From Dehalococcoidia bacterium (GTDB lineage Bacteria > Chloroflexota > Dehalococcoidia > Bin125), in contig OZ242037.1 in NCBI GenBank assembly GCA_965205165.1, forward strand, positions 1,706,576 through 1,770,575: a stretch of 64,000 nucleotides of DNA. Direction: 5' to 3'. Under the pieces are notes generated by a model. That model was given only the letters and a program-made list of their open reading frames with translations, did not search any database and was not told where the DNA came from. Numbering within the stretch: the stretch's first letter is position 1; the number at the start of each line of letters is the position of its first letter. Positions 19,123 to 60,354 of this stretch are shown piece after piece. The position numbers were made by a program, and so were the translations under genes.

Positions 19123-19132
19123 GTCGATTCTC

Positions 19133-27593: not shown

Positions 27594-28277
27594 GTGGCTA
27601 CGGTGTTGATCGTGGAGGATGAGGGGCATTTGGCGGAGACGCTGCGGTTCAACTTGGCGGCGGAGGGGTACACGGTGCGGACGGCTGGGGACGGTGCGGA
27701 GGGGTTGTCGCTGGCGCGGGCGCTGCGGCCGGATTTGGTGCTGCTGGACGTGATGCTGCCGAAGTTGGACGGGACGGAGGTGCTGCGTGGGATTCGGGAG
27801 CATTCGCTTGCGCCGGTGGTGCTGCTGACGGCGCGGGCGGGGGAGGCGGACCGGGTGCGGGGTTTGGATTTGGGAGCGGACGACTACGTGGTGAAGCCGT
27901 TCAGCATGGCGGAGTTGAAGGCGCGGGTTCGGGCGCATTTGCGGCGGAAGCAGCTGCCGACGGAGTTGATCGGGGAGCGGCGGATTGCGTTCGGGGGGTT
28001 CGAGCTGGACTTGGACCGGCGGGTGCTGAGCCGGGGCGGGGAGCAGGTGGGGCTGCGTCCGAAGGAGTACGAGGTGCTGGCGTACTTGGCGCAGCGGGCG
28101 GGGAAGGCGTTCACGCGGGATCAGCTGCTGAACGACGTGTGGGACATTTCGTACGGAGGGGGGACGCGGACGGTGGACGTGCATGTGCGCTGGCTGCGGA
28201 GCAAGATCGAGGAGCCGGGGGCGGAGCCGCGGCATCTGATCACGGTGCGCGGGGTGGGCTACCGTTTCGAGCGCTGA
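27594..28277 (+). CDS. OmpR/PhoB-family response regulator
   Basis: The receiver domain is 'VLIVEDEGHL...LVLLDVMLPKLDG'. A winged helix follows in '...VDVHVRWLRSKIE...GVGYRF'. Confidence 0.85.
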   Translation: MATVLIVEDEGHLAETLRFNLAAEGYTVRTAGDGAEGLSLARALRPDLVLLDVMLPKLDGTEVLRGIREHSLAPVVLLTARAGEADRVRGLDLGADDYVVKPFSMAELKARVRAHLRRKQLPTELIGERRIAFGGFELDLDRRVLSRGGEQVGLRPKEYEVLAYLAQRAGKAFTRDQLLNDVWDISYGGGTRTVDVHVRWLRSKIEEPGAEPRHLITVRGVGYRFER

Positions 28278-43782: not shown

Positions 43783-43818
43783 CGCGGGCGTCTTTCGGGG
43801 CGGGGCGGGCAGTCGTGG

Positions 43819-46386: not shown

Positions 46387-47595
46387 ATGGCGGCACCTTT
46401 GGACGGGGTCAAGGTGGTGGATTTCACGCGGTACCAGAACGGGCCGCATGCGACGGCGATGCTGGCGGACATGGGGGCGGAGGTGCTGAAGGTGGAGATG
46501 CCGGGGAACGGGGATCCGGGGCGGCAGCTGGGGGTGGGGGCGGACGGGTTCTGCTCGTACTTCGAGGCGCTGAACCGGGGGAAGCGGTCGATGACGCTGG
46601 ATTTGCGGGCGGAGGGGGCGCTGGAGATCGTGCGGAAGCTGGTGGCTGAGGCGGATGTGCTGGCGGAGAATTTCCGGCCGGGGTACTTGGACAGCATCGG
46701 GCTGGGGTACGAGGATTTGAGGGGGGCGAATCCGCGGCTGATCTACGCGACGAACAGCGGGTTCGGACCGGAGGGGGAGTGGGCGAGGCGGGGGTCGTTC
46801 GACGTGGTGGCGCAGGGGATGAGCGGGGCGATGGTGGCGCTGGGCGGGGGGCCGGGGGAGCGGCCGATCACTGCGCCTTGGGGGTTGGCGGATCAGACGG
46901 GGAGCATCATGTTCGCGTACGGGATCGTGACGGCGCTGCTGGCGCGGGAGCGGTACGGGGTTGGGCAGAAGATCGACGTGTCGCAGCTGGGGGCGATGCT
47001 GACGCTGCAGGCGCTGTCGATTCAGGCGTACCTGCATTCGAAGACGCAGCCGGTGCTGAAGCCGGGGAAGTCGTTCAGCGCGACGTTTTCGTGGTACCAG
47101 TGCGGGGATGGGGAGTGGCTGACGGTGGGGGTGCTGGATCCGAAGTTCTGGCCGGTGCTGTGCGGGGTGCTGGAGCGGGAGGATTTGGTGGAGGATTCGC
47201 GGAGCGCGGATCCGTTCCAGCGGCGGGACAACGAGGAGTGGCTTCGGGGGGAGTTGGCGGAGGCGTTTTCGGCGCGATCGCGGGACGAGTGGATCGAGCG
47301 GCTGGCGGCGGGGAAGGTGCCGTGCGGTCCGGTGTACGACTACGCGCAGGTGGCGGAGGACGAGCATTTCTGGCTGAACGGGTACTTGCAGGAAGCGCCG
47401 CACCAGCATTTCGAGGCGCATCACGTGGTGGGGATTCCGGTGTCGTTCTCGGAGACGGGGACGCGGGTGGAGTCGGCTGCGCCGGAGCTGGGGCAGAACA
47501 CGGAGGAGGTGCTGCTGGGGCTGGGGTACGACTGGGGGGACATTGAGCGGCTGCACGATGCGGGGGTGACGGCGGTCAAGCGCAACGGGGCGTAG
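46387..47595 (+). CDS. CoA-transferase family III (CaiB/BaiF)
   Basis: The N-terminus 'LDGVKVVDFTRYQNGPHATAMLADMGAEVLKVEMP' is family-typical. Confidence 0.85.
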   Translation: MAAPLDGVKVVDFTRYQNGPHATAMLADMGAEVLKVEMPGNGDPGRQLGVGADGFCSYFEALNRGKRSMTLDLRAEGALEIVRKLVAEADVLAENFRPGYLDSIGLGYEDLRGANPRLIYATNSGFGPEGEWARRGSFDVVAQGMSGAMVALGGGPGERPITAPWGLADQTGSIMFAYGIVTALLARERYGVGQKIDVSQLGAMLTLQALSIQAYLHSKTQPVLKPGKSFSATFSWYQCGDGEWLTVGVLDPKFWPVLCGVLEREDLVEDSRSADPFQRRDNEEWLRGELAEAFSARSRDEWIERLAAGKVPCGPVYDYAQVAEDEHFWLNGYLQEAPHQHFEAHHVVGIPVSFSETGTRVESAAPELGQNTEEVLLGLGYDWGDIERLHDAGVTAVKRNGA

Positions 47596-47622: not shown

Positions 47623-47919
47623 TCAGCTGTTGCGCCACTCTTGGTAGTAGTAGGTCTCGGTGGTGCCGTCGGGGCAGGTGCGGCGTGCGGTGACCCAGTA
47701 GAGGTAGGTGGTGCTGTAGCGGGTGGCGTGGGCGTCGATGCGGCGCTCGGTGAGGATGGTGCGCGGGCAATTGTTGGAGACGGGCTCGACGGCGGGGGCG
47801 GTGGCCGCGGGGGCGATGCTGACGGCGGCGTCGGCGCCGCTGCCGGGGAGGAGGGCGATCAGGGCGAGGGCTGCTGCGGCGACAACAGCGGCGGCGAGGG
47901 CGGTGATGGGCGTGCGCAT
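47623..47919 (-). CDS. Short secreted Cys-pair protein (family S)
   Basis: A 98-aa product with a signal peptide (AxA-type) and two Cys spaced about 30 aa apart, then '...CPDG...YYYQEW'. Confidence 0.6.
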   Translation of the reverse strand: MRTPITALAAAVVAAAALALIALLPGSGADAAVSIAPAATAPAVEPVSNNCPRTILTERRIDAHATRYSTTYLYWVTARRTCPDGTTETYYYQEWRNS

Positions 47920-47951
47920 CGTTGTCAGGCTGCTTGCCGGTGCGGGGCTGG

Positions 47952-48317
47952 TCACGTGACGACCTGCCACTGGCGGTAGCGGACGGTGCCTGATTGGGCG
48001 TGGGTGCAGGTCTGGGTGCGGGTGTATTCGTAGAGCTCGTAGGTCACGCCGTCGACGACGGAGCGCTGGCCGAGGCTTCGCTTGGTGGTGGTGACGGACT
48101 GGCAGCGCTGGTCTTGGGTGTCGGAGAGGTCGGGGGCGGCGGTGGGCGCGAAGGCGGCGGCGGCGATGGCGTCGGGGGTTTCGGCGATGCCGGTCGAGGC
48201 GGCGTCGGCGCTGCTCCAGGCGAGGAGGCCGATCAGGGCGATTGCGGCGGCCGCGGCGATGGTGGTGAGGGCGGCGAGCTTGGCGGTGCGGAAGTGCGAT
48301 GCGGGGGTGTTCGTCAT
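47952..48317 (-). CDS. Short secreted Cys-pair protein (family S')
   Basis: A 121-aa product with a signal peptide. It is a near-duplicate of the 48434..48799 product. Confidence 0.6.
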   Translation of the reverse strand: MTNTPASHFRTAKLAALTTIAAAAAIALIGLLAWSSADAASTGIAETPDAIAAAAFAPTAAPDLSDTQDQRCQSVTTTKRSLGQRSVVDGVTYELYEYTRTQTCTHAQSGTVRYRQWQVVT

Positions 48318-48433
48318 GATGCTTCCTTCTCGCTGGCGGCGGTCTCGGCACCGTTGTCAGTGTACGGCGGGGGCGGGGGTTTGGCTCAGCTGGGCCGGTT
48401 CTCCCGGTGTACTGGCGGCGGTGCCGGGGCTGG

Positions 48434-48799
48434 TCAGGTGACGGCTTCCCACCCGCGGTAGCGGACGGTGCCTTCGTTGGCTCCGCCGCAGTCTCTGGTG
48501 TTGGTGTACTCGTAGAGCTGGTAGGTCACGCCGTTGACGACGGTGGTCTGTCCGAGGCTTCGCTTGGTGCTGCTCGTGGTACTGCACCAGCTTTGCGGGT
48601 CGGAGGGGTCGGGGGCGGTGGCGGGTGCGAAGGCGGCGGCGGCGGCGATGGCGGCGGGGGTTTCGGCGATGCTGGTCGAGGCGGCGTCGGCGCTGCTCCA
48701 GGCGAGGAGGCCGATCAGGGCGAAGGCGGCGGCCGCGGCGATGGTGGTGAGGGCGGCGAGTTTGGCGGTGCGGAAGTGCGATGCGGGGGTGCTGGTCAT
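48434..48799 (-). CDS. Short secreted Cys-pair protein (family S')
   Basis: A 121-aa paralog of the 47952..48317 product. The two share 'MT(N/S)TPASHFRTAKLAALTTIAAAAA' and '...VRYR.W..VT'. Confidence 0.6.
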   Translation of the reverse strand: MTSTPASHFRTAKLAALTTIAAAAAFALIGLLAWSSADAASTSIAETPAAIAAAAAFAPATAPDPSDPQSWCSTTSSTKRSLGQTTVVNGVTYQLYEYTNTRDCGGANEGTVRYRGWEAVT

Positions 48800-48833
48800 G
48801 ATGCCCGTCTCCTCTCGCTTGCGGGGGTTGGGC

Positions 48834-49145
48834 TCAGCTGCCCCAGTCTTCCCAGTATTGGTGGCGGCGCTGGTTGCGGTCGACGGTGCCGCCGCTGCCG
48901 TCTGGGCAGCGGTCGACGATGGTCTCTTCCCAGAGTCTGTGGTCGACGTAGCCGAAGGAGTCGCGGGTGACGCGGAGGAGGCGGGTGTTGATGACGACTT
49001 CGGTGCAGCCGGCTTGGGTTTGCGCGAGGCTGGGTTCGGCGGGGGCGGCGGGTACTGATGCGGCGCCGGCGGAGGTTGCCGCGAGGGCGAGCGCGCCGGC
49101 GGCGAGGGCGGCGGCGAGGGCGAGCTTGAGCTTGCGGGTGATCAT
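48834..49145 (-). CDS. Short secreted Cys-pair protein (family S)
   Basis: A 103-aa product with a signal peptide and 'C...TIVDRCPDGSGGTVDRNQRRHQYW'. Confidence 0.6.
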   Translation of the reverse strand: MITRKLKLALAAALAAGALALAATSAGAASVPAAPAEPSLAQTQAGCTEVVINTRLLRVTRDSFGYVDHRLWEETIVDRCPDGSGGTVDRNQRRHQYWEDWGS

Positions 49146-49169
49146 CGTTGCGCCTTTTTGGGGAGCGGG

Positions 49170-49478
49170 CTAGCCGTTGTCGAACTCTTGGACGTCGACC
49201 CAGTAGCGGACGCGGCGCTGGTTGAGGTCGACGGTGCCGCCGGCGGCGGTGGTGCAGCGGTCGACGATGGTGTCTTCGATTTGGCGCTGGTCGATGAAGT
49301 TGCCGTCGCGGGTTTCGCTGATGACGCGGGAGGAGATGGTGACGGTGGTGCAGTCATCGGTCGCCGTGCTGGCCTGCTGCGCACCGACGGGCTGGGAGGC
49401 GGGGATTGCGACGAGCAGGACGGCGGCGGCGAAGGCGGCCAGGGCGGCGGTGATGCGGAGGTTCCGCGATGCGGTCAT
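49170..49478 (-). CDS. Short secreted Cys-pair protein (family S)
   Basis: A 102-aa paralog of the 48834..49145 product, with 'C...TIVDRCTTAAGGTVDLNQRRVRYW'. Confidence 0.6.
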   Translation of the reverse strand: MTASRNLRITAALAAFAAAVLLVAIPASQPVGAQQASTATDDCTTVTISSRVISETRDGNFIDQRQIEDTIVDRCTTAAGGTVDLNQRRVRYWVDVQEFDNG

Positions 49479-49520
49479 GTTGGGAGGGCCTCTCGTTGGC
49501 GGCTGTTTTCGGTGGCGGGC

Positions 49521-49871
49521 TTAGCCGCCGTCGCGGGACCAGTAGCTGCGGGAGTAGCTGCGGTCGACGCCGTCGGTGCAGGTTCGCTGGATCTGCTGGG
49601 TGTAATGGACCCAGTCGCCGCCGTCATCGGTGGCGGCGTTCCGGCCTATCTCGCGGGGGGTCTGGGGTTCCCAGGTGCAGGTCACCTGCTGAGCGGGGGC
49701 TGGCTGGCCGGCGGGCGGTGCGAAGGAGATGGCGATGGTCTCGGCTTCGCCGGCGGGCGGGGCGACCTCGGCGGCGTCGGTCTGGGCGGTCCAAGCGAGG
49801 AGGGCGAGTGCCGCGAGGAGAGCGGCGAGCGGCAGTGCTCGGCTGCGGGCGGTGGTTTTGATGGATGGCAT
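49521..49871 (-). CDS. Short secreted Cys-pair protein (family S)
   Basis: A 116-aa product with a signal peptide and 'CTWEP...CTDGVDRSYSRSYW'. The GCTATCCTGCGCG motif lies upstream. Confidence 0.55.
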   Translation of the reverse strand: MPSIKTTARSRALPLAALLAALALLAWTAQTDAAEVAPPAGEAETIAISFAPPAGQPAPAQQVTCTWEPQTPREIGRNAATDDGGDWVHYTQQIQRTCTDGVDRSYSRSYWSRDGG

Positions 49872-49902
49872 CGGGTGCTCCCTTCGCGGGCGGGGCGGTC
49901 TG

Positions 49903-49922
49903 CCCTCGCGCAGGATAGCCGG
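49903..49922 (-). promoter_or_regulatory. Recurrent promoter-like motif GGCTATCCTGCGCG on the minus strand (approximate coordinates) upstream of the secreted-protein gene ending at 49871
   Basis: The reverse complement of 'cgcgcaggatagcc' lies about 40 nt upstream of the start codon. Confidence 0.4.
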
Positions 49923-49938
49923 GCGGGGCGTGGGCGGA

Positions 49939-50658
49939 TCAGTCGGCGAGGTGGGATTCGCCCTGCGGCGGGGTGACCTGGAAGGCGTCCGGGGTCAGGC
50001 CGGGGACGATGGAGACGCGCCAGAGGGTGACGCGGTAGCGGACGGTGATGATCGAGATGGGGGGAGCGGGGGGGATGAGGCCGGCGGGTGCGTCGCTGCC
50101 GTCGGTCATGATCGGGAGCCAGGTGCTGGTGCAGCGGTAGTCCTCGACGCGTTCGATCTGCTCGAAGAGGACGTCGTCGACGGTCTGGGTGAGGCCGGTG
50201 AGGCGGATGCTGTGGATGTCGTTGACGGGGCAGCGGGTCTGGTAGTGCCAGCGGAGCATGGGGTGCTTGTCGTCCTGCATGATCAGGGCGCATTGGAGTT
50301 GCAGGTCGGTGAGGCGGTCTTCCGGTGGGATGCGGGCGACGAGCTTGTCGGAGTCGTCGACGGTCGTGCCGCGGAGTCGGGCGAAGTAGCGGTCTTGGAG
50401 GATGTCGAGGCTGGGGACGCCGGAGCAGTCTGGGCGGTCGTCGTCGGGGTTCGCGGGGGGCGGGGCAGGGTCGTCGTCTCCGTCGTCGGCGTCGCCGGAA
50501 GCGGAGCTGGTTCCGCCGTTGCTTGTGCTGGTGTCGCCGTCGTCGGGCGTTTGGGCGGAGGCGGTTGCGGCGAGGGCGAATACGGCGGCGAGCACGAGGA
50601 GCAGCGCGGCGGGGAGGAGGGCGATGCGCCAGGCGGGTCGGCTTTCAGTCTTGGTCAT
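49939..50658 (-). CDS. Secreted protein carrying shared domain B only
   Basis: A signal peptide, an acidic linker, then domain B 'YFARLRG...DSD...IP..DRLTD...C...HP.L.W...T.C......RLTG.....D.......RV....C.....P.M.DGS..P..LIPP'. Confidence 0.6.
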   Translation of the reverse strand: MTKTESRPAWRIALLPAALLLVLAAVFALAATASAQTPDDGDTSTSNGGTSSASGDADDGDDDPAPPPANPDDDRPDCSGVPSLDILQDRYFARLRGTTVDDSDKLVARIPPEDRLTDLQLQCALIMQDDKHPMLRWHYQTRCPVNDIHSIRLTGLTQTVDDVLFEQIERVEDYRCTSTWLPIMTDGSDAPAGLIPPAPPISIITVRYRVTLWRVSIVPGLTPDAFQVTPPQGESHLAD

Positions 50659-50700
50659 GGGGCGATCCTTTCGCGGGCTCGGGGAGATGGGCGGTCTGGT

Positions 50701-51804
50701 TTAGGTGCATTCGCGCCAGCAGAGCCAGAAGTAGGCGGACGACGGGGCGGTGAGCACCGTTCTCGGCTCGCTGGGGGGGATGAGGTCTTCGGGCGGGGTG
50801 GAGCCGTCGTCCATGGCGGGTGTTTGGACGTAGCGGCATTCGGAGGTGGCGACGCGCTGGAGTTGGATGTAGACGCCGTCTTGCTGGCGTTCTTCGACGC
50901 CGGTTCGGCGGAGGGAGATGAGGTCGAGGATTCTGCAGGTGGTGGTCTCGGACCAGGAGAGGCCGGGGTGCTTGAGGTCTTGGAAGATCTGGGCGCATTC
51001 GCGGCCCTCGTCGGTGATGCGGTCGGCTTGGGGGATCTGGCTGACGAGCCTGTCGGAGTCGGGTTTGGTGGAGCCGCGGGCGCGGGCGAAGTAGCGGTCC
51101 GTGAGGTATGTGCCGTCGCCGTAGGTGTTCACGCATTGGGTGGGGGTGACGGTGCCGGGCGGGCGGGAGAACTGGAAGGTGAAGTCCTCCCAGACGTCGG
51201 TGTTTTCGTCTTGCTCGTTGAAGTAGATGCCGGCGTGGAGGTAGGCGGGGCCGCTGTGGCTGTCGGGGACGGTGAAGGAGATTTCGACGGGGAGGGCGTT
51301 TTCCTCGCTGGTGGCGGTGGTTTCGGTGGGCCAGTGGCCGTCGACGGTTTGGTCGCGCCTGTTGAAGGTGCCGAGGGTGCGGCGGTCGGAGAAGTCGTCT
51401 GGGAGGTAGATGTGTGCGCCGGCGATCAGGGAGCCGTCGGAGCCGGGGGCGTCGCGGAGTTCGAGGTACCACTGGTCGCGGTAGACGGCGCCGCGGATGT
51501 CCTGGACGTTCTCGGCGACGACGTTGGCGGGGCCGCAGTTGCCGATTCCCCACGCTCGGAGGTAGAGGGTGATGGAGGTGGCGCGGGTCCAGGAGTATGC
51601 GCCGGCGGTTCTCTGGACGCTGTCTTGGTTGGGGCAGATGGCGGTGTCGCCGACTTTGGCGTACCAGCGGCCGAACCATTCCCTGTTCTGGGCGTCGACG
51701 GAGGCGCGGGGGAGGAGCGCGGCGGTCGCGCCGAGCAGGATGGCGGCGGCGAGGGCGAGCAGGGCGAGTCGGCCGGCTGGGGCGTTTCGGGCGAGGCGGA
51801 TCAT
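50701..51804 (-). CDS. Secreted two-domain protein (domain A + domain B)
   Basis: A signal peptide, then domain A 'WFGRWYAKVGDTAICP...YLELRD...ISFTVPDSHSGPAYLHAGIYFNEQDENTDVWEDFTFQF', then domain B. A TAAGAT -10-like box lies upstream. Confidence 0.65.
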   Translation of the reverse strand: MIRLARNAPAGRLALLALAAAILLGATAALLPRASVDAQNREWFGRWYAKVGDTAICPNQDSVQRTAGAYSWTRATSITLYLRAWGIGNCGPANVVAENVQDIRGAVYRDQWYLELRDAPGSDGSLIAGAHIYLPDDFSDRRTLGTFNRRDQTVDGHWPTETTATSEENALPVEISFTVPDSHSGPAYLHAGIYFNEQDENTDVWEDFTFQFSRPPGTVTPTQCVNTYGDGTYLTDRYFARARGSTKPDSDRLVSQIPQADRITDEGRECAQIFQDLKHPGLSWSETTTCRILDLISLRRTGVEERQQDGVYIQLQRVATSECRYVQTPAMDDGSTPPEDLIPPSEPRTVLTAPSSAYFWLCWRECT

Positions 51805-51844
51805 CGCGGCACTTCCCGTTTGCGGCGGGCTTGGCGGATCGGGG

Positions 51845-51858
51845 CGATCTTACCCTGA
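51845..51858 (-). promoter_or_regulatory. -10-like TAAGAT element (minus strand, 'cagggTAAGATcgc', approximate coordinates) upstream of secreted-protein gene 50701..51804
   Basis: The 'cagggtaa(a/g)at' context matches that of the paralogous gene. Confidence 0.4.
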
Positions 51859-51877
51859 AGGGGGGTGGCTGGCGGGG

Positions 51878-52528
51878 CTAGGCGCAGTCTTCCCAGCAGA
51901 GCCAGAAATAGGCGACGTGGGGGCCGGTGATTTCGGTTCTGGGTTCGCTGGGGGGGATCAGGTCGTCGGGCGGGGTTGAGCCGTCGTCCATGGCGGGGGT
52001 TTGAACGTGCTGGCAGGAATGTGAGGCGGTGCGCTGGAACTGGGCGTAGGTGCCGTCTTGGCGTTCTTGGCGGGAGCCGGTGAGGCGCAGCGATTCGACG
52101 AGGTGGATGCGGCAGGTGACGCGCTCAGACCAGGAGAGGCCGGGGTGGGCCTCGTTTTGGAGGGACTGGGCGCAGAGGCGCTCATCGGCGGTGAGGCGGT
52201 CGGCTTGGGGGATGGCGGCGAGGCGGCGGTCGGAGCCGTCTTTGTCGGAGCTGGGGATGCGGGCGAAGTAGGTGTTTTGGAGGTCTTGCAGGCCTCCGCT
52301 GTACTGGAGGCACTCGGGGCTGTCGGAGGCGGTGCCAGCGGCACCGGCGCCGGCGGGCGGGTTGTCGTCGCCTTCGCTGATGGTGATCGGGGTGGATGCG
52401 GAGTTGCCGGTTTGCTGTGCGGAGGCGGTTGCGGAGGCGGCGATGATGGCGGCGAGTGCGAGGAGCAGGGCGGCGGCGAGGAGTGCGGGGCGCGGGGAGA
52501 GCGCGGCTTCGAGGTTTTTCCGGGTCAT
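51878..52528 (-). CDS. Secreted protein carrying domain B only
   Basis: A 216-aa paralog of the 49939..50658 product, with '...YFARIPSSDKDGSDRRLAAIPQADRLTADERLCAQ...PAMDDGSTPPDDLIPP'. Confidence 0.6.
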   Translation of the reverse strand: MTRKNLEAALSPRPALLAAALLLALAAIIAASATASAQQTGNSASTPITISEGDDNPPAGAGAAGTASDSPECLQYSGGLQDLQNTYFARIPSSDKDGSDRRLAAIPQADRLTADERLCAQSLQNEAHPGLSWSERVTCRIHLVESLRLTGSRQERQDGTYAQFQRTASHSCQHVQTPAMDDGSTPPDDLIPPSEPRTEITGPHVAYFWLCWEDCA

Positions 52529-52563
52529 GGGGCGTCCTTTCGGGGGCGGGCGGGGGGGCTCTC

Positions 52564-53619
52564 CTAGATCCAGAAGTAGTGGATGAGGGGGCCGGTGGCT
52601 TCGGTCCTGGTCTCGTAGGGGGGGATCAGGTAGCCGGGGACGTGGGAGCGGTCGCTCATCGTGGGACTTGCGGTGTGGCTGCAGTCGAAGGTGGCGGTGC
52701 GCTGGACTTGGTAGTGGAGGTGGCCGTCGGCGCCTCGTTGCTCGGAGCCGGTGCGGCGGAGGGAGATGAGCCTGGTGAGGGAGCAGTCGGTGTCGTGCTG
52801 CCAGGTCAGTGCGGGCCATTGGAGGTTTTGGAGGACTTGGGCGCAGTAGCGCTGGTCGGCGGTGATGCGGTCGGCTTGGGGCGTTCGCCAGAGGGCGTTG
52901 TTCCTGGTGCCGTCGGCATTGAGGGCGTAGTAGCGGTTTTGGATGGTTTCCAGGGCGCCTGGGAGCACGGAGCAGGTCGGGTTGGGGCGGGAGAACTGGA
53001 AGGTGAAGTCTTCCCAGACATCTTCGTTTTCGTCTTGCGAGTTGAAGTAGATGCCGGCGTGGAGGTAGACGGCGCCGGCGTGGTCGTCGGGGATGGTGAA
53101 GGAGATTTCAGCGGCGCGGACGGGGACCTCTTGGTGGTTGAGGGTCGGCCAGTTGCCATCGGTGGTCTGGTCGCGCCTGTTGAGGGTGCCGCTGGTGCGG
53201 CGGCCGCGGAAGTTGTCGGGGAGGTCGATGTGGGCGCCGTCGATCAGGGAGCCGCGGGAGCCGGAGGCGTCGCGGAGTTCGAGGTACCACTGGTTGCGGT
53301 AGATGGCCCCGTCGACGCTGCCGACGGTCTGGGCGACGACGTTGTCCGGGCTGCAGTCGCTGATGCCCCATTCCCTGAAGTGGAGGGTGATGGAGGTGGA
53401 TCCGGTTGTGGAGTAGTCGCCGGCGTCGGCGACGATGTCGTTTTGTTCGGGGCAGATGGGGGTGTTGCCGACTTTGGCGTACCAGCGGCCGAACCAGTTC
53501 ATGTTCTGGGCGTCGGCGGGGGCGCGGGGGAGGAGTGCGGCGGTTGCGCCGAGCAGGATGGCGGCGGCGAGGGCGAGCAGGGCGAGTCGGCGGGCGGGGA
53601 TTCTCGGGGTGATGGTCAC
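52564..53619 (-). CDS. Secreted two-domain protein (domain A + domain B), paralog of 50701..51804
   Basis: Domain A 'WFGRWYAKVGNTPICP...' is followed by a divergent domain B. The start is probably the GTG at 53619. A TAAAAT -10-like box lies upstream. Confidence 0.6.
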   Translation of the reverse strand: MTITPRIPARRLALLALAAAILLGATAALLPRAPADAQNMNWFGRWYAKVGNTPICPEQNDIVADAGDYSTTGSTSITLHFREWGISDCSPDNVVAQTVGSVDGAIYRNQWYLELRDASGSRGSLIDGAHIDLPDNFRGRRTSGTLNRRDQTTDGNWPTLNHQEVPVRAAEISFTIPDDHAGAVYLHAGIYFNSQDENEDVWEDFTFQFSRPNPTCSVLPGALETIQNRYYALNADGTRNNALWRTPQADRITADQRYCAQVLQNLQWPALTWQHDTDCSLTRLISLRRTGSEQRGADGHLHYQVQRTATFDCSHTASPTMSDRSHVPGYLIPPYETRTEATGPLIHYFWI

Positions 53620-53654
53620 GGCGCGTCCTGTTCCCGGTGCGGTTGTCGGCAACG

Positions 53655-53670
53655 GGAATTTTACCCTGAG
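53655..53670 (-). promoter_or_regulatory. -10-like TAAAAT element (minus strand, 'cagggTAAAATtcc', approximate coordinates) upstream of secreted-protein gene 52564..53619
   Basis: An AT-rich hexamer in an otherwise ~70% GC intergenic region, about 40-50 nt upstream of the start. The paralog at 51845..51858 has a matching element. Confidence 0.4.
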
Positions 53671-53705
53671 TCGGGGCAGATGAGGCCGCGAAGATCGGGG
53701 GGCGG

Positions 53706-54365
53706 TCAGCTGGAGGGGGCGGGGATGGCGGCGGGGACGGAGGTGGTCCAGTACTGGTTGTCGATGGTCTGGGTGACGCGTCCGCAGGCGCGGGAGCCGA
53801 CGACGCGGACTTCGTAGACGACGCGGTGGTTGGGGCCGTACATGCCGCGGCGGAGGATCGTCGGGGAGAGGGTTTGGATGGGACCGCAGATGGTCCATTG
53901 CTGGGCATAGGCGGTTCGGCCGCATTCGTTGCGCTCGGTGTTGCGCCAGAGGTATTCGGTGCGGCCGTTGGAGGTGCGCTGGTTGAGGGTTTCGTCGGTG
54001 ATGGTCTTGATGCCGGAGCAGCCGCCGGTGTAGGCGTTGGGGATGTCGGACAGGCGGGTTGGGGACCAGTAGGTCAGCCTTGTGTTGACGGCGGTGCCGT
54101 CGCAGTCGCGCCAGGTGTCTTCGGAGTAGGGGGTGGCGTTGGAGTAGCCGCCGTTGCTGTAGACCAAGCCGGGGCGGCCGATCTGGCGGATGGTGCGCTG
54201 GAGGATGTAGGGGCAGTCTTCGGGGGAGCTGGCGTCGGTGCGGTCGACGGCGCGGGGGGCTTGGGGGAGGGGGCTGGTGCGGGAGTCGGCGGGCTGGGCG
54301 GCGAACGTCCAGGCGGAGAGGCCGGCGATGAGGGCGAGGAGGGCGGCGAGGGTGATCTTGGTCAT
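53706..54365 (-). CDS. Secreted Cys-rich protein (distinct family)
   Basis: A 219-aa product with a signal peptide and six Cys. No family was recognised. Confidence 0.5.
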   Translation of the reverse strand: MTKITLAALLALIAGLSAWTFAAQPADSRTSPLPQAPRAVDRTDASSPEDCPYILQRTIRQIGRPGLVYSNGGYSNATPYSEDTWRDCDGTAVNTRLTYWSPTRLSDIPNAYTGGCSGIKTITDETLNQRTSNGRTEYLWRNTERNECGRTAYAQQWTICGPIQTLSPTILRRGMYGPNHRVVYEVRVVGSRACGRVTQTIDNQYWTTSVPAAIPAPSS

Positions 54366-54504
54366 GGGGGTGCTCCGGATTCCGCCAGCGGCGGTTGGTC
54401 TGGATTCTAGGCGGTTCGGAGGGCGCGTGTCAGGGTGCGGGGGTTGCGGCTGTGGTGCTGCATCATCGTCGTCTCGCGGGCGGGCCCGGATCGGATAGGC
54501 CGCG

Positions 54505-55410
54505 CTAGGACTGGTGGTGGATTTCGGGCGGGATGCGGTCGACTGGGGCGCCGTAGGTGGTTCGGCTGGTGTAGGCGCGGCCGTTGCAGTTGTAGGTGGC
54601 GGTTACCTGGATCGAGATGTAGCGGACTTGGCTGCCGGCGTCGGGCGAGTCGTAGGGCTCGCCGATCTGTTGGACGATGCGCTCGACGGGGCCGACGCAG
54701 GCGCGGTGCGCGGGGGCGTTGAACTTGAGGCGGGCGTGGGTGTGCTTGACGTCATTGGCCCACATGGTGAGATGGAGCCAGACGGGGCCGGAGTGGGAGC
54801 GGGGCACGGAGAAGCGGATGTTGACGCGGGGGAGGTTGCCGACGTGGAGCGCGCCGTCTTGGTCGCAGTAGCCGAAGGTTCCCTTGTCGGGCGAGGCTCC
54901 GATGCGGCGGGCGTAGATGCGATTGTAGGTCTCGCCGTCGGCGTTGCGCCAGGAGCCGTCGCTGCAGGTGAGGCCGCTGACGTACTCGATGTCGGCGCCC
55001 GGGACGAGGTCGCCGGTCTCGCCATGGGCGGTCGAATCGGACGAGGTGATTTTGAGTTCGTAGGCCGAGATGGGGTAGTCGAAGGGGGCGGGGGTGTGGG
55101 TTCTGCAGGGGAGGCCGCGGCCGAGGCGGAAGGCGACGGAGTTCCAAGCGCCGTTGTCGGCGTAGGGGGCGCTGGCGGTGCGGTCGCAGACGTTGCGGTT
55201 TTGGACGGAACCCCAGGTGGTGCCGGCTTCGCCGAGCTGTGCGGTGATGCTGGAGTTGCCTTGGCGCCAGGCGACGGCGCCGGGGTTGCCGTCGGCATCG
55301 GCGGGGGCGGGGGCGAGGAGGAGCCAGCCGCCGAGGAGGAGGGCGAGGGTCAGGGCGAGGAGGGCGGCGCGGCGGAGGGCGGGCCGGGGCCGTGGGGCGG
55401 AAGCGGTCAT
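54505..55410 (-). CDS. Secreted protein sharing sub-domain C1 with 55441 and 56689 products
   Basis: A signal peptide is followed by a C-terminal 'ACVGPVERIVQQIGEPYD...YNCNGRAYTSRTTYGAPVDRIPPEI', comparable with 'CVGPIQRHVQRIG...VDRIPRDI'. Confidence 0.55.
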   Translation of the reverse strand: MTASAPRPRPALRRAALLALTLALLLGGWLLLAPAPADADGNPGAVAWRQGNSSITAQLGEAGTTWGSVQNRNVCDRTASAPYADNGAWNSVAFRLGRGLPCRTHTPAPFDYPISAYELKITSSDSTAHGETGDLVPGADIEYVSGLTCSDGSWRNADGETYNRIYARRIGASPDKGTFGYCDQDGALHVGNLPRVNIRFSVPRSHSGPVWLHLTMWANDVKHTHARLKFNAPAHRACVGPVERIVQQIGEPYDSPDAGSQVRYISIQVTATYNCNGRAYTSRTTYGAPVDRIPPEIHHQS

Positions 55411-55440
55411 GGTTCGGTTCCCTTCAGGCCGGAGGGGGTT

Positions 55441-56658
55441 CTAGGGCGCGGTGATGGTGGCGGGGACGTTGTAGGTCCAGAGGAGGTTGATGAACCAGTA
55501 GGGGCAGCTGGCGTCGAGTTCTTGTCCGCTGAGCTGGTGGCGGAGGTCGACTTGGTAGGCGATGCGGTTGTCGGCGGTGATGCGGCGCTGGAGGATGATC
55601 GGCGTCTGGCTGAGGATGCCGCCGCCGCAGGTGGTGACGCCGATCACGGTGCCGGGGTTGGGGGTGCCGCCGCCGCAGCCTTGGTCGGCCCAGCGGAGCT
55701 GGAAGGAGTAGGCGGTGCGGCCGCCGCGCTGGCCGGCGACGTGCAGGCTGTTGTCCTTGTCGCGCTGGTAGTCGGAGGTGATGCCGGACTTGATCAGGTT
55801 GCAGTCGGCGTGCGGTCGGGGGATATCGCGCGGGATGCGGTCGACCGGGACTCTGTAACGGGTGCGGGTGGTTCGGGCGGTGCCGTCGCAGTCGTGGATT
55901 TCGGTGACTTGGATCACTTGGCGCGAGTTCAGGGGCGGGCCGATTCTTTGGACATGGCGCTGGATGGGGCCGACGCAGGCGTTGGAGGCAGGCGGCGTTG
56001 GAGGCGGGTTGAACTTGAAGGTGAAGGGTTCCCAGACGTCGTTGTTGTCGTGTTGCTCGTTGAAGAAGACGCTGACGTAGAGGTAGACGGGGCCGGTGTG
56101 GCTGCTGGGGACGGTGAAGGAGATTTGGGCGGTTCTCATGTAGGGGCCGCCGCCGTAGTTGGAGTAGTTGGGCCAGTCGCCGTCGCTGGCTTTGTCGAGG
56201 GAGTTGTGGGTGCCGGTGGTGCGTCGGCCGCTGAAGGTGGCGGGGAGGGTGATGCCTGCGCCGCTGATCAGGGAGCCGCCGGTGCCGGTGGCGGTGCGCA
56301 GCTGCATGGTCCAATTGCCGGCGTAATCAGCGCCTTCCTCGCCGCTCTGGGAGTCGGTGAGGACGTTGGAGTCGCTGCAGTTGGGGAGGTCGAAGGCCAG
56401 CATGCGGAGGGTGATCGTGGTGGGGGAGGTGCGCGAGTATTCGCCGGCATCGGCTTCGGTGGCGGTTTCGTCGGGCGGGCAGATGGCGGTGTCGCCGACT
56501 TTGGCGTACCAGCGGCCGTAGAGGTCCCCGGCTTGGGCATCGGCCATGGCGGTGGAGAGAGCGATGGAGCCGGCGAGGAGAAGGGCGAGGGCCAGGGCGA
56601 GCAGGGCGGCGCGACCGAGGGCGGGATGCCGGCGGGTTGCGGGAGCGAGGGTGGTCAT
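55441..56658 (-). CDS. Secreted two-domain protein (domain A + domain C)
   Basis: A signal peptide, then domain A ('GRWYAKVGDTAICP...FTFKF'), then domain C ('CVGPIQRHVQRIG...CGGGILSQTP...SCPYWFINLLWTYNVPATITAP'). Confidence 0.65.
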   Translation of the reverse strand: MTTLAPATRRHPALGRAALLALALALLLAGSIALSTAMADAQAGDLYGRWYAKVGDTAICPPDETATEADAGEYSRTSPTTITLRMLAFDLPNCSDSNVLTDSQSGEEGADYAGNWTMQLRTATGTGGSLISGAGITLPATFSGRRTTGTHNSLDKASDGDWPNYSNYGGGPYMRTAQISFTVPSSHTGPVYLYVSVFFNEQHDNNDVWEPFTFKFNPPPTPPASNACVGPIQRHVQRIGPPLNSRQVIQVTEIHDCDGTARTTRTRYRVPVDRIPRDIPRPHADCNLIKSGITSDYQRDKDNSLHVAGQRGGRTAYSFQLRWADQGCGGGTPNPGTVIGVTTCGGGILSQTPIILQRRITADNRIAYQVDLRHQLSGQELDASCPYWFINLLWTYNVPATITAP

Positions 56659-56688
56659 GGGGTGTTCCCTTCCACGCCGCAGGGTGCG

Positions 56689-57912
56689 TTACGGGGCGGT
56701 GATCGTCTCCGGGACGTCGTAGGTCCAGAGGAGGTTGATGAACCAGTAGGGGCAGCTGGCGTCGAGTTCCTGGCCGCTGATCTGCTGGTGGAGGTCGACT
56801 TGGTAGGCGATGCGGTTGTCGGCGGTGATGCGGCGCTGGCGGATGGTGGGGGTTTGGCTGAGGATGCCTCCGCCGCAGGAGGTGACGCCGATTGTGGCGC
56901 CGGAGTTGGGGGTGCCGCCGCCGCAGCCGAGGTCGGCCCAGCGGAGATAGAAGGAGTACATGTCGCGGCCGTTTCGCCGGCTGGCGACGCGCAAGCTGCC
57001 GTCGGGGTTGAGGGCGTAGCCGAAGGTGATGCCGGACTTGATCAGGTTGCAGTCGGCGTGGGGGCGGGGGATGTCGCGCGGGATGCGGTCGACCAGGACT
57101 CTGGAGGTGGTGCGGGTGGTTCGGGCGGTGCCGTCGCAGTCGTGGATGTCGGTGACTTGGATCACTTGGAACGAGTTCAGAGGGAGGCCGATTCTTTGGA
57201 CGTGGCGCTGGATGGGGCCGACGCAGGAGTCGGAGGCGGGTGGGTCGAACTTGAAGGTGAAGTCCTCCCAGACGTCGTTGTTGTCGTGTTGCTCGTTGAA
57301 GTAGGCGCCGGCGTGGAGGTAGACGGGGCCGCCGTGGCTGTCGGGGACGGAGAAGGAGATGGCGACGGGGTGCATGGCGGGGACGCGAAAGTCCCAGTGG
57401 ACTTCGCCGTTGGGCCAGTCGCCGTCGGTGGTTTGGTCGCGCCTGTTGTGGAGGCCGCTGGTGCGGCGGCCGGTGAAGGTGTCGGGGAGGGTGATGTAGG
57501 CGCCTTGGATCAGCTGGCCGCCGGATCCGGTGCCGGTGCGGAGTTCGAGGTACCAGCGGCCGCTGTAGGAGGCCCCCTCGGTGTAGTCGCTGCCGCGTGT
57601 TCCCCAGCGGAGTTGGTCGACGTTGTCGGGGCCGCAGTCTTCGATTTCCCAGTCCTTGAAGTTGAGGGTGATCGTGTTGGCGGCGGTTCTGGAGTAGGTG
57701 CCGGCGTCGGCCTCGATGTCGGTGTAGGCGGGGCAGATGGCGGTGCCGCCGACTTTGGCGTACCAGCGGCCGTAGGGGCTCATGTTCTGGGCGTCGACGG
57801 CGGCGGGGGCGAGGAGGAGCCAGCCGCCGAGGAGGAGGGCGAGTGTCAGCGCGAGCAGGGCAGCGCTGCGGAGGTCGGGGCGGCGGCGGTGGGCGGCGGC
57901 AGGGGCGGTCAT
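56689..57912 (-). CDS. Secreted two-domain protein (domain A + domain C), paralog of 55441..56658
   Basis: A 407-aa product with the same architecture. Domain C is about 85% identical to that of the 55441..56658 product. Confidence 0.65.
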   Translation of the reverse strand: MTAPAAAHRRRPDLRSAALLALTLALLLGGWLLLAPAAVDAQNMSPYGRWYAKVGGTAICPAYTDIEADAGTYSRTAANTITLNFKDWEIEDCGPDNVDQLRWGTRGSDYTEGASYSGRWYLELRTGTGSGGQLIQGAYITLPDTFTGRRTSGLHNRRDQTTDGDWPNGEVHWDFRVPAMHPVAISFSVPDSHGGPVYLHAGAYFNEQHDNNDVWEDFTFKFDPPASDSCVGPIQRHVQRIGLPLNSFQVIQVTDIHDCDGTARTTRTTSRVLVDRIPRDIPRPHADCNLIKSGITFGYALNPDGSLRVASRRNGRDMYSFYLRWADLGCGGGTPNSGATIGVTSCGGGILSQTPTIRQRRITADNRIAYQVDLHQQISGQELDASCPYWFINLLWTYDVPETITAP

Positions 57913-57998
57913 GGGCTGGTTCCTTTTCCGCGGGCATCGTATACGAGCGGTTGGCTCGGCGGTGGGGCGGGTGGGATCATGGGGAATTTCCGGGGCGG

Positions 57999-58712
57999 TC
58001 AGGTGCCGTTGATGGCGGCGTCCGGGTCGAAGGTGCGGATGTTCCAGGATTGGCGGAGGTCGCCGTCGGCGCATTCGCGGGTGATGGTGACGCGGACGTT
58101 GTAGACCATTTTCCAGTCGGAGCGGCGGACGGAGCGCCCGGTGATGACGCCGGTGCGTTCGGAGATGCGGCTGCAGCTGTTCCAGTGGCTGAAGTTGGCG
58201 CCGAGTCTGGCGCCGCAGGCGTCGACGACGGATTGGCCCCATTCGTACTGGGTTCGGCCGTTTCTGACGCGCTGTCCGCGGCGTTCCAAGTTCCAGCTGG
58301 CTTGGATGTAGCGGCAGGCGGGGGCTTCGACGAGGGCGATGGGGTCGGGGAGGTCGGTGGTCCAGAAGGTGCGGTTGTTGATGGTGTAGTTGCCGTTGCA
58401 GTCGTATCCCTCGCCGACGCGGAGGTGCCAGTTGACGCTGGCGGCCTGCATTTCGGCGAGGCTGTTCCAATGGCGGGTGAAGGCGCTGGCGGGGACGGTG
58501 CTGATCACGAAGACGCGGCGTTCGAGCAGGGTGTCGTCGCACCAAGCGGCGGGGGCGAGGCGGTCGACGGCGGCGGTTTGGGGGGCGCCGGCGGGCGGGC
58601 GGTCGGCGGCGGCGCCGGCGGAGGAGATGAGGGCGAGCGCGGCGATGGCTGCGAGCGCGGCGGCGGTCAGGGTCGCCGGGATGGAGCGGGCTTTGATGCC
58701 GTCTATGCGCAT
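57999..58712 (-). CDS. Secreted Cys-rich protein (distinct family)
   Basis: A 237-aa product with a signal peptide and eight Cys. No family was recognised. Confidence 0.5.
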   Translation of the reverse strand: MRIDGIKARSIPATLTAAALAAIAALALISSAGAAADRPPAGAPQTAAVDRLAPAAWCDDTLLERRVFVISTVPASAFTRHWNSLAEMQAASVNWHLRVGEGYDCNGNYTINNRTFWTTDLPDPIALVEAPACRYIQASWNLERRGQRVRNGRTQYEWGQSVVDACGARLGANFSHWNSCSRISERTGVITGRSVRRSDWKMVYNVRVTITRECADGDLRQSWNIRTFDPDAAINGT

Positions 58713-58833
58713 CTTGGAACCTCGCGGCCATGCACTGGGGGGTCAGGCACTGGCGATTTCGGGTCGGACGGGTGGAGCATATCGGAGCGGGGCGGGGGCG
58801 GGATCGGCCGTTATGGCGGGTGTTGGCGGCGGA

Positions 58834-59523
58834 TCAGCCGGGCGGATCTTGTTCGGGGACGTCGTCGGTCCAGAGGGTGTTGGTCAGCGTTTCGGGGCAA
58901 TCGTCGGCTGCGCCGCTGAGGCGGTGGGTGAGGCGGATTTCGTAGAGGACGCGGCTGCTGGCGTCGACGGCGCGGCGGAGGGTCTCGATCTGCTGGGATT
59001 CGAGGCCGCCGCCGCAGTAGGTTTCGGCGAGGATGTTGCCGTGGCTGGGGCCGTGGGTTGCGGAGTCGCCGCAGGTATCGGAGGGCCACTGGATGCGGAA
59101 GAAGTAGCGGGCGCCTTGGGCGGCCTGGGAGGTGAGGAGGTTGCCGAGGTTGTTGCGGTCGTAGGCCCAGTTGATGCCGGTTTTGACGAGGCGGCAGGAG
59201 GGTGCGGGGGTGGGGGCGATGTCGGGCGGGGGGCTGCCGGGAGCGCGGACGTAGAAGACGCGGTTGGTGCGGGCGGCTCCGTCGCAATCCCAGACGGAGG
59301 TTTCGAGCACGCCGATGGAGCGGACGCCGTTCTTGAGGTAATGGCCGATCACGTTGGAGGTGCGGGAGAGGGGGCCTTCGCAGCCGGGCAGGGAGCGCTG
59401 GGCGGTCTGCGGCGGGGCTGCGGCGCCGAGGGCGGGATTGGAGAAGGAGGCGGCTCCGGCGACGGCGATCAGGCCGGCGAGCGCTCCGAGGGCGGCCACT
59501 GCGGCGGCGAGGAGCTTGGCCAT
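58834..59523 (-). CDS. Secreted protein related to sub-domain C2
   Basis: A signal peptide is followed by a C-terminal 'YCGGGLESQQIETLRRAVDASSRVLYEIRLTHRLSGAADDCPETLTNTLWTDDVPE', comparable with 'CGGGILSQTP...CPYWFINLLWTY.VPE'. Confidence 0.55.
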   Translation of the reverse strand: MAKLLAAAVAALGALAGLIAVAGAASFSNPALGAAAPPQTAQRSLPGCEGPLSRTSNVIGHYLKNGVRSIGVLETSVWDCDGAARTNRVFYVRAPGSPPPDIAPTPAPSCRLVKTGINWAYDRNNLGNLLTSQAAQGARYFFRIQWPSDTCGDSATHGPSHGNILAETYCGGGLESQQIETLRRAVDASSRVLYEIRLTHRLSGAADDCPETLTNTLWTDDVPEQDPPG

Positions 59524-59593
59524 GCGGCTTCCTTTCGCACGGGCCCTCGGCAGGGGCTCTCAGCGGCAGCCTAGCGGGGCCCGGGCGCGCGGG

Positions 59594-59935
59594 TCAGATG
59601 AGGCCGGTGGTTTCGATCCAGCGGGAGCGGGTGGTGTAGGAGCGGGAGCGGATGGTGATGGTGGTGCCGGGGACGTCTTCGCGCCAGGTGCAGGTGTAGT
59701 GGTAGGTGCGCTCGATGGTTTGGGTTCGGCGGGTGCCGCTGGTGCCTTGGGCGACGACGCGGTCGGTTTGGGAGACCAGCGAGCAGGTCTCGTCTTCGCG
59801 GGGGTTGTCGTCGGATTGGGCGGAGGCGGACGGGGAGAGGGCGGCCGAGGCGGCGATGACGAGGGCGGCGACGGCGATTGCGGCGACTGCGGGGAGGATG
59901 ATCGCGGGGAGTCGGCGGGTGCGGAGAGCGGTCAT
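59594..59935 (-). CDS. Short secreted Cys-pair protein (family S'')
   Basis: A 113-aa product with a signal peptide and 'ETCSLVSQTDRVVAQGTSGTRRTQTIERTYHYTCTW...WIETTGLI'. Confidence 0.55.
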   Translation of the reverse strand: MTALRTRRLPAIILPAVAAIAVAALVIAASAALSPSASAQSDDNPREDETCSLVSQTDRVVAQGTSGTRRTQTIERTYHYTCTWREDVPGTTITIRSRSYTTRSRWIETTGLI

Positions 59936-59991
59936 GGCGGCCTCCTTCGGCGTTCGGGTTTGCGGGGGCAAGCCTACGCGGTTGGGCGGGG

Positions 59992-60303
59992 TCAGATGAG
60001 GCCGGTGGTTTCGGTCCAGCGGGTGCGGATGGAGTAGGAGCGGACGGTGTAGGTGGGGTATCGCTGGCCGGGTTCGTCGTGGCGCAGGCTGCAGAGGTAC
60101 GTGGTGGTGCGTTCGATGGTTTGGGTTCGGCGGGTGCCGCTGGTGCCTTGGGAGATGACGCGGTCGGTTTCGCGGAAGAGGATGCAGGTTTCGCCTTCGC
60201 GGGGGCCGTTGTCGGATTGAGCGGAGGCGTTGGGTGAGAGTGCGGTCCAAGCGGCGATGACGAGGACGGCGGCGGCGATTGAGGCGATGGCGGTGTTCTT
60301 CAT
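59992..60303 (-). CDS. Short secreted Cys-pair protein (family S''), paralog of 59594..59935
   Basis: 'ETCILFRETDRVISQGTSGTRRTQTIERTTTYLCS...WTETTGLI' is about 70% identical to the 59594..59935 product. A GGAGGA RBS precedes the ATG at 60303. Confidence 0.55.
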   Translation of the reverse strand: MKNTAIASIAAAVLVIAAWTALSPNASAQSDNGPREGETCILFRETDRVISQGTSGTRRTQTIERTTTYLCSLRHDEPGQRYPTYTVRSYSIRTRWTETTGLI

Positions 60304-60354
60304 GGCGGCATCCTCCGATGTTCGACGGGGCAAGCCTACGCCGATCGGGGCGGG

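Follow-up and report, generated by a model that had tools for sequence, protein, structure and literature searches.

A candidate island of fast-evolving, modular exported proteins beside purL in a narrow lineage of Dehalococcoidia

The stretch of 64,000 nucleotides analysed here (the window) belongs to a Dehalococcoidia bacterium, and its minus strand carries between positions 47623 and 60303 an array of 18 co-oriented genes, named g01-g18 after trimming to plausible starts, whose products have export-type N-termini and even numbers of cysteines. The array is bounded upstream by purL (FGAM synthase II, 60355-62616, minus strand; its ortholog in the related contig L001 contains Pfam AIRS and AIRS_C) and downstream by a convergent CoA-transferase family III gene (46387-47595, plus strand). 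The G+C content of the window is 69% and long open reading frames (ORFs) are present in all six frames. The minus-strand frames from 47.6 to 60.3 kb have G+C fractions of about 0.65, 0.55 and 0.9 at the first, second and third codon positions (GC1, GC2 and GC3), which is the pattern of genuine genes in a GC-rich genome. The start codon is ATG in 17 of the 18 genes and GTG in g10, a purine-rich Shine-Dalgarno sequence precedes each of them by 5-10 nucleotides, and the spacers within the array measure 24-139 nucleotides. The ratio of nonsynonymous to synonymous change (dN/dS, or omega) was 0.2-0.67 for all 17 array genes with an ortholog in L001 and L002; because these values are below 1, we conclude that these genes encode proteins. 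A wrong-strand reading, suggested by the strong GC skew and the long plus-strand ORFs, was ruled out by the GC3 periodicity, the Shine-Dalgarno sites and dN/dS. The plus-strand ORF at 54514-58104 (1196 residues) shows an antisense codon-position pattern and is an artefact of the 69% G+C content. The same three lines of evidence bear out the first-pass annotation, made from the sequence alone, in its claim of a co-oriented minus-strand array of at least 18 genes.

Export signals were judged by a rule-based check and not by SignalP or another trained predictor. All 18 products have a positively charged N-terminus followed by a hydrophobic stretch of 18-31 residues without charges, and the site after this stretch is mostly of the A-x-A/Q type (ASA-Q, VDA-Q, ADA-Q). 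By the same check, no lipobox and no convincing twin-arginine (Tat) motif was found in any of the 18 products. The cysteine count is even in every product: two in each of eight small proteins, spaced by 31-33 residues, and four to eight in the remaining ones, which hold two to four pairs with spacings mostly of 27-47. The annotation had also ascribed an N-terminal signal peptide and paired cysteines to every product, and this agrees with the rule-based check and with the even counts. In many of the small proteins and of the proteins with domain B described below, a linker of 20-40 residues rich in Ala, Pro and Asp follows the hydrophobic segment. T, R, Q, E and D abound in the mature small proteins, which are not strongly hydrophobic.

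The eight small proteins are single-module products: g01 (47623-47919, 98 residues, one cysteine pair spaced 31, with orthologs in the related contigs L001, L002, L083 and L084), g02 (47952-48317, 121 residues, with an Ala/Pro-rich linker), its paralog g03 (48434-48799, 121 residues, 75% identity), g04 (48834-49145, 103 residues), its paralog g05 (49170-49478, 102 residues, 43% identity), g06 (49521-49871, 116 residues), g17 (59594-59935, 113 residues) and its paralog g18 (59992-60303, 103 residues, 62% identity). They form one superfamily with the signature C-x7-R...C...W. Across 41 sequences (the eight of the window and 33 metagenomic orthologs) exactly four residues of the mature part never vary, namely C47, R55, C80 and W98 in g04 numbering. 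The protein chosen for an AlphaFold2 (AF2) model, built from the alignment of these 41 sequences, was g04. Its residues 45-100 were predicted with a local distance difference score (pLDDT) of 90-95 and form antiparallel strands at 48-61, 67-81 and 87-100; Cys47 directly precedes strand 1, and strand 2 has Cys80 at its end. The small module, of roughly 55-65 residues, is thus modelled as a three-strand beta-meander. Structural analogues of this sheet were only pieces of larger or oligomeric sheets. In the model the sheet lacks a core and likely pairs with another sheet, so that homo- or hetero-oligomers are plausible.

The larger proteins combine three domains, which we delimited by all-versus-all BLASTP. 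Domain A occurs in g08, g10, g13 and g14 at 48-58% identity and in a divergent form in g12 at 27-35%; no array protein holds more than one. Domain B stands alone in g07 (49939-50658, 239 residues; acidic linker, domain B at 50014-50439) and g09 (51878-52528, 216 residues; linker, domain B at 51899-52324). It is joined to domain A in g08 (50701-51804, 367 residues; A at 51139-51684, B at 50722-51147) and in g10 (52564-53619, 351 residues; A at 52978-53502, B at 52567-52986). Domain C follows domain A in g13 (55441-56658, 405 residues; A at 55981-56529, C at 55444-55989) and g14 (56689-57912, 407 residues; A at 57229-57783, C at 56692-57237). In g12 (54505-55410, 301 residues) the divergent domain A (54703-55290) is joined to one C1 module (54508-54711). 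The scheme of A, B, A+B and A+C proteins proposed in the annotation, which had named this very comparison as its check, was therefore confirmed. The annotation had assigned only the C2 part to the product of the gene at 58834; this was incorrect, for g16 (58834-59523, 229 residues) consists of domain C alone (58837-59394) and matches it at 36% identity over 190 residues, that is, over the whole of C. Two further proteins, g11 (53706-54365, 219 residues; modules at 53709-54227) and g15 (57999-58712, 237 residues; modules at 58002-58553), are distant three-module relatives of C; hhalign gave 92% for C1 with g11a, 96% for C3 with g11c, 94% for g11b with g15b and 86% for g11c with g15c. The small-protein superfamily, the C identity of g11, g15 and g16 and the nature of domain A (see below) had all escaped the earlier reader.

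Two local features of these genes deserve mention. The C-terminal motif FWLCW(R/E)(E/D)C adds an extra C-x3-C pair in g08 and g09 (50701-50722 and 51878-51899) and in their orthologs, including the g08 ortholog of the divergent contig L085; it is not present in g07 or g10. Judged by its sequence, this pair may bind a metal or form a local disulfide. The 5' ends coding for the signal peptides of g12, g13 and g14 (55294-55400, 56536-56642 and 57790-57896) are 77-87% identical in DNA. For g12 and g14 this identity is 87% and the hydrophobic regions match over 21 consecutive residues, against about 35% identity of the mature parts; the similar ends may have arisen by gene conversion or by swapping of 5' ends. 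Other DNA-level repeats in the array (60-91% identity) mirror paralogy only.

We compared the small module with the cysteine-bounded modules of domains B and C. In the AF2 model of g13, C1 has Cys228 followed by strands 229-243, 246-257 (ending at Cys257) and 260-271, which is the layout found in g04, and C2 and C3 are three- or four-strand units bounded by a cysteine pair. A hidden Markov model (HMM) of the small module, scored against cysteine-preserving shuffles, recognised g11b, g15b, g15c and three of the four B2 modules at p<=0.01, and all 12 control segments (B1 and the two halves, N- and C-terminal, of A) stayed above 0.05. No similarity to the small module was found by this HMM test for the cysteine pair of domain A (spacing 33-34). 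It is probable, rather than proven, that one ancestral Cys-beta1-beta2-Cys-beta3 module lies behind the small, C and B2 modules. It is used once in each small protein, probably three times in the C-type proteins and probably once in domain B.

No array protein was matched by models of Pfam, NCBIfam, PHROGs or PADLOC or by PDB sequence profiles. Weak PDB profile matches to MelC were rejected, being confined to the signal-peptide region. The annotation had recognised no known domain in any of the products, and as far as sequence families go it was right; domain A, in contrast, is predicted to be an immunoglobulin-like (Ig-like) beta-sandwich of a kind that also occurs in giant secreted repeat proteins. 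These came to light with the A+C profile, which had 17 matches in an exhaustive HMMER search of 1.84 billion representatives. Several of the matches are giants of 1398-4963 residues with a similar signal peptide, a full-length domain A and many repeats of about 115 residues that match the C-terminal half of domain A; the giants had no Pfam match. Because the giants open with a full-length A and repeat its C-terminal half, domain A is a variant of the Ig-like unit from which this lineage builds its giant secreted, adhesin-like proteins. The largest, P0014 (4963 residues), has two full-length A domains and many of the repeats, with no Pfam or NCBIfam match. It lies on a contig of 2,853,868 bp that also carries exact copies of g09 (P0062) and g16 (P0021), and it therefore belongs to the genome of the window, outside the window itself. 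Giants with tandem repeats in relatives are P0016, P0017 and P0024, and P0028 is similar. P0014 and P0028 have in common a conserved C-terminal segment, LWNG+RW…YAT…G…IPGS…F…HP.D.L, which from its sequence could be an anchoring domain.

The distribution of the families is narrow. In 5.8 billion proteins, the small-protein profile had 33 matches and the domain B profile 19, all of them orthologs or paralogs of array genes, and a word-indexed search with g13 had 13. All matches to the array families came from metagenome assemblies of one narrow Dehalococcoidia lineage. When one genome from each of 185,579 GTDB species was scanned, domain A was not found, and we found no description of the array protein families in the literature. 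A purL scan of the GTDB species placed the window in the Chloroflexota, class Dehalococcoidia, with best matches of 68% identity in L003 (a complete chromosome of a metagenome-assembled genome) and L004 ("Chloroflexi bacterium bin125"). As to habitat, the MPN* accessions are presumably those of an Aplysina aerophoba sponge metagenome study, and two related contigs carry names of the form PANK22-1_SAMN…_METAG. M. S. Pankey is an author on Caribbean sponge metagenomes (PMC9723761). The provenance of the metagenomes thus makes a sponge-associated lifestyle of the array-bearing lineage likely, and one related circular contig with the array had a coverage of 164x in its metagenome. In sponges with high microbial abundance, Dehalococcoidia and related Chloroflexota rank among the most abundant symbionts. 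To our knowledge none of these symbionts has been cultured, and almost nothing is known of their cell surface or of how they are told apart from food by the host.

The array occupies an identical site, between purL and the convergent CoA-transferase III gene, in the five related contigs L001, L002, L083, L084 and L085. In L003 and L004, ordinary metabolic genes follow purQ-purL directly, and no array protein was detectable in any of 80 purL loci. The annotation had placed the array next to purL and between CoA-metabolism genes; purL does adjoin it, but only one flank, the CoA-transferase III gene, concerns CoA, the other being purL/purQ. In the five contigs the orthologs are mostly one-to-one and nearly keep their order. 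Comparison of relatives, as the annotation had proposed, showed all the same that the array is not invariant. Gene g16 is missing from L001 and L002, where the order of g12 and g13 is also swapped; L001 has one additional A+C paralog; and L085 is without g10 and g01-g03 and has a truncated g07-like fragment. This fragment, an ORF of 112 residues at L085 4008-4346, corresponds to the C-terminal half of a g07-type protein without signal peptide, adjoins an intact copy and is probably the remnant of a partial tandem duplication. No tRNA gene was found in the window, no recombinase gene in the flanks scanned against Pfam, and no flanking repeats, inverted repeats or simple-sequence tracts apart from short GC-rich codon repeats.

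The array and its flanks have not diverged in step. The CoA-transferase of L085 is 95.5% identical to that of the window, against 62-79% for its array proteins; in L002 and L084 the flanks show 92% identity and the arrays 70-92%. Compared with L085, the flank genes had dN of 0-0.08 and omega of about 0-0.2 (0.53 for one hypothetical gene), and the array genes had dN of 0.18-0.31 and omega of 0.58-1.30, the highest value being that of g11 (1.3); across the array, omega is mostly below 1. The silent sites are near compositional saturation (C at third positions, C3, about 0.8), and the Nei-Gojobori omega was therefore replaced by a four-fold-site distance with Tajima-Nei correction. Amino-acid change per silent change was then 0.74 in the array and 0.31 in the flanks for L083, 0.60 and 0.21 for L002, 0.55 and 0.29 for L084, and 0.84 and 0.37 for L085, so that the array (0.55-0.84) exceeds the flanks (0.21-0.37) by 2-3-fold in these four. 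For L001 (array at 7035-20576, flanks at 1832-6945) the array value was 0.90 and the flank value was not estimable. Silent distances in array and flanks were 0.041 and 0.057 for L083, 0.211 and 0.350 for L002, 0.214 and 0.364 for L084, and 0.265 and saturation for L001. Silent divergence is thus lower in the array in four comparisons, whereas against L085 it is more than twice that of the flanks (0.394 vs. 0.168). In L001, a more distant relative, the array retains a strong preference for C-ending codons (GC3 skew -0.56), unlike purL (-0.18) and a neighbouring HD-domain gene (+0.04). This contrast in codon usage, together with a silent divergence from the window that is much lower in the array than in purL, suggests that the island was replaced laterally or that its codon usage is under selection.

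The simplest reading of these data, in which the cassette exchange is deduced from five contigs, is that the locus is under relaxed or partly positive selection and that related strains at times exchange it through recombination in the conserved flanks. The near one-to-one orthologs, the omega values mostly below 1 and the lack of inverted repeats and simple-sequence tracts ruled out a hypervariable or phase-variable locus. The earlier description of a diversifying gene family is accordingly right in that the genes evolve faster than their flanks and vary in content, and wrong if a hypervariable repertoire is meant. The description as an island without recombinase genes fits both the purL loci of the nearest GTDB genomes, which lack the array, and the decoupled divergence.

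Signals for transcription within the array were sought in the spacers, which have 67-83% G+C. A scan of the coding strand for the sigma-70 consensus gave one site against 0.5 expected, and a terminator scan found no terminators on this strand above chance level. Alignment of the spacers across relatives, on the other hand, revealed short conserved islands with TANNNT-type hexamers in at least seven of them, with variable surroundings. The annotation's promoter-like AT-rich elements are therefore incorrect in that form, because the G+C content of the spacers is high and the sigma-70 scan is at chance, although short hexamers are conserved. The motifs are GTACACTGACA before g02 (48355-48365), GGGTAAGAT before g08 (51847-51855), GGGTAAAAT before g10 (53658-53666), CGTATACGATG before g14 (57935-57945) and GATATGCTCC / GATATGCT before g15 (GATATGCTCC at 58774-58783); GCGTAGGCTTGCC / GCGTAGGCTTG is common to g17 and g18, with GCGTAGGCTTGCC at 59967-59979 and again at 60329-60341. 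Promoters with only a -10 element occur in other GC-rich bacteria, and by their sequence the conserved hexamers would fit several internal promoters of this type. They suggest transcription units of approximately g18, g17, g16, g15, g14-g12, g11, g10-g09, g08-g03 and g02-g01.

From the gene calls, export-type N-termini, cysteine pairing, modules, predicted folds, narrow distribution and evolutionary pattern, we infer that the array is a fast-evolving, exchangeable island of exported surface proteins of coat or adhesin type, a reading to which we give about even confidence. The 18 proteins would cross the membrane by the Sec pathway and either be cleaved after A-x-A or stay tethered through their hydrophobic segment; once outside, each beta module would be stapled by one disulfide. 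Three building blocks would be in use: the Ig-like domain A, the three-strand Cys-x7-Arg…Cys…Trp meander and the B1 piece; the Ala/Pro/Asp-rich linker of the small and B-type members would be suited to a stalk. The proteins would then form or decorate the cell surface and meet an external partner, which might be host matrix, other cells or phage. Pressure from outside on such surface proteins would lead both to faster evolution than in the surroundings and to swapping of the cassette between related strains.

Several observations weigh against this interpretation. The export signals were called by rules, and the long hydrophobic stretches might instead be membrane anchors that stay uncleaved. 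Neither an LPXTG/sortase nor an SLH nor any other anchor motif was found with Pfam and NCBIfam, the C-termini have no LPXTG and no hydrophobic tail, and there are no secretion or assembly genes near the array. The model of domain C has low confidence (pLDDT 50-73), and hhalign aligned the small-protein profile with the C and B2 modules end to end at E values of 0.0015-0.02 and a probability below 20%. Because a C3 of about 0.8 saturates silent sites, dS and hence omega are imprecise. Finally, paralogs that are mostly one-to-one with omega below 1 fit fixed structural subunits equally well.

This last point leads to the best of the alternatives, a single extracellular structure (an S-layer-like coat, sheath or fibre, for example) in which each of the 18 proteins is a fixed subunit with a place of its own and the three-strand sheets pair edge-to-edge or face-to-face. 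We regard it as unlikely; several observations speak for it. Besides the near-constant set and order of paralogs in the five contigs, the genes share one strand with tight spacers of 24-139 nucleotides, and a lone three-strand sheet without a buried core, whose analogues are pieces of larger or oligomeric sheets, would be at home in an assembly. However, a fixed machine would poorly tolerate losses such as those of g10 and g01-g03 in L085 and of g16 in L001 and L002, or the extra A+C protein of L001. Its subunits would also have to evolve in amino-acid sequence at 2-3 times the rate of the flanking genes, and no assembly, chaperone or usher genes are found nearby.

Somewhat less probable again is that the products are soluble secreted effectors, that is, inhibitors, toxins or signalling proteins acting on a host or on competitors. 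The eight small mature proteins of only about 60-90 residues, each a compact beta module with a single disulfide, look the part, and the restriction to one lineage, the rapid amino-acid evolution and the lack of an anchoring motif would be expected of effectors. But the array has no partners of immunity type without signal peptides and no dedicated transporter, and no bacteriocin, toxin or inhibitor family was matched in Pfam, NCBIfam or PDB. The giant repeat proteins, whose architecture is adhesin-like, moreover contain domain A as well, and the linker of 20-40 residues in many members suits tethered display.

An ordinary housekeeping role outside the cytoplasm, in solute binding or envelope maintenance, with co-transcription from purQ-purL, is very improbable. 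It has in its favour that g18 starts only 51 nucleotides downstream of purL in the same orientation and that no terminator was found on this strand. It is largely refuted by the distribution, since the array is not beside purL in the nearest genomes and domain A occurs in none of the 185,579 GTDB species representatives. The conserved promoter-like hexamers of the array and its raised evolutionary rate also speak against it, and the search for a known housekeeping family, such as solute-binding proteins, by sequence and structure comparison found no such homology. That the ORFs are merely chance open frames, as might be feared where 69% G+C fills all six frames with long ORFs, is already refuted by the GC3 periodicity that singles out the minus frames, the Shine-Dalgarno sequence before every gene, the 17 genes with dN/dS below 1, the cysteines and motifs kept across dozens of metagenomic orthologs and the confident AF2 model of g04.

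The island of exported surface proteins remains our preferred reading, and it could be taken a step further. The array might define an extracellular protein system of sponge-associated Dehalococcoidia that has not been described before. In it a new disulfide-stapled meander might serve as a universal block, occurring singly, as triplets or joined to an Ig-like head, in a cassette-exchangeable surface repertoire that governs how host or phage recognises these bacteria or how they evade it. We offer this wider proposal as a speculation that is doubtful as it stands.

Other parts of the window have features of their own. From 22000 to 64000 the plus-strand GC skew is +0.3 to +0.47. Third codon positions have about 0.8 C and 0.1 G in minus-strand genes and about 0.7 G and 0.16 C in plus-strand genes, so that the magnitude of the GC3 skew is about ±0.6-0.85 in this region regardless of gene direction. 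The same strand-linked composition is present in L083, an independent circular assembly of 2.84 Mb, whereas the nearest GTDB relatives have a skew of only 0.04. We found no report of a comparable bacterial GC skew in the literature, and this composition may be more unusual than the array itself. At 8933-18517, where G+C is 53-60%, lie genes for a ResIII/DEAD helicase, a GHKL ATPase (HATPase_c_3), an N6/N4 DNA methylase and an ApeA-HEPN protein; this is a probable defence island, sited where the GC skew changes sign. One ORF of 925 residues at 24820-27597 (minus strand) combines a ParB N-terminal domain, a helix-turn-helix and a luciferase-like monooxygenase domain and is either an unusual fusion or two genes. 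The presence of a ParB gene near the switch in skew suggests that the replication origin is close by. At 42943-43818 (minus strand) a gene for a multi-pass membrane protein without Pfam match stands beside a second hypothetical gene in all relatives; it is unrelated to the array.

The locus type itself, a lineage-specific set of rapidly evolving exported paralogs, some of them Ig-like, at one fixed site, is familiar; what is new is that none of its protein families, namely domain A, domain B and the small/C module, is described in a database and that the small module has a confidently predicted fold with no solved structural counterpart. Being lineage-specific, compact and fast-evolving, and sharing modules with giant surface proteins, the array is a candidate interaction surface of a symbiont. 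Its significance is bounded by a function deduced indirectly and by the confinement of the family to one narrow lineage.

Among known systems, clusters of polymorphic toxins or bacteriocins differ from the array: no toxin or bacteriocin domain was found with Pfam, NCBIfam, PADLOC or PDB profiles, all 18 genes have an export signal, and the flanks hold purL, CoA-transferase and ferredoxin genes. Families of small, cysteine-rich effectors that symbionts and pathogens secrete resemble the array in being lineage-restricted, signal-peptide-bearing, disulfide-stabilised, clustered and fast-evolving. Unlike the array, they are mostly eukaryotic (fungi and oomycetes); larger Ig-like proteins account for half of the array, and there is no evidence here of delivery into a host. 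The chaplins of Streptomyces are small secreted surface proteins with one conserved cysteine pair, accompanied by longer multi-domain members. The array has likewise small exported paralogs with one cysteine pair and longer multi-module members, and both sets are presumed to act at the surface. However, the array proteins have no chaplin domain by Pfam and no sortase signal, are polar and charged instead of hydrophobic and are predicted to form a long three-strand meander. Fibrillar adhesins and giant proteins with Ig-like repeats share with the array the export signal, the Ig-like sandwich and, through domain A, homology to the head and repeats of secreted proteins of 1.4-5 thousand residues. 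They differ in that the array proteins have only 98-407 residues, no tandem stalk and no recognised anchor, that domain A is joined to the unrelated B and C, and that neither the array nor the giants match an adhesin or stalk family of Pfam. Cassette loci for capsule, O-antigen or S-layer, which strains exchange with one another, encode biosynthetic enzymes or a single S-layer gene, whereas the array encodes small secreted proteins; as in the array, such loci have a fixed site between housekeeping genes, a divergence decoupled from that of their surroundings, variable gene content and no dedicated recombinase.

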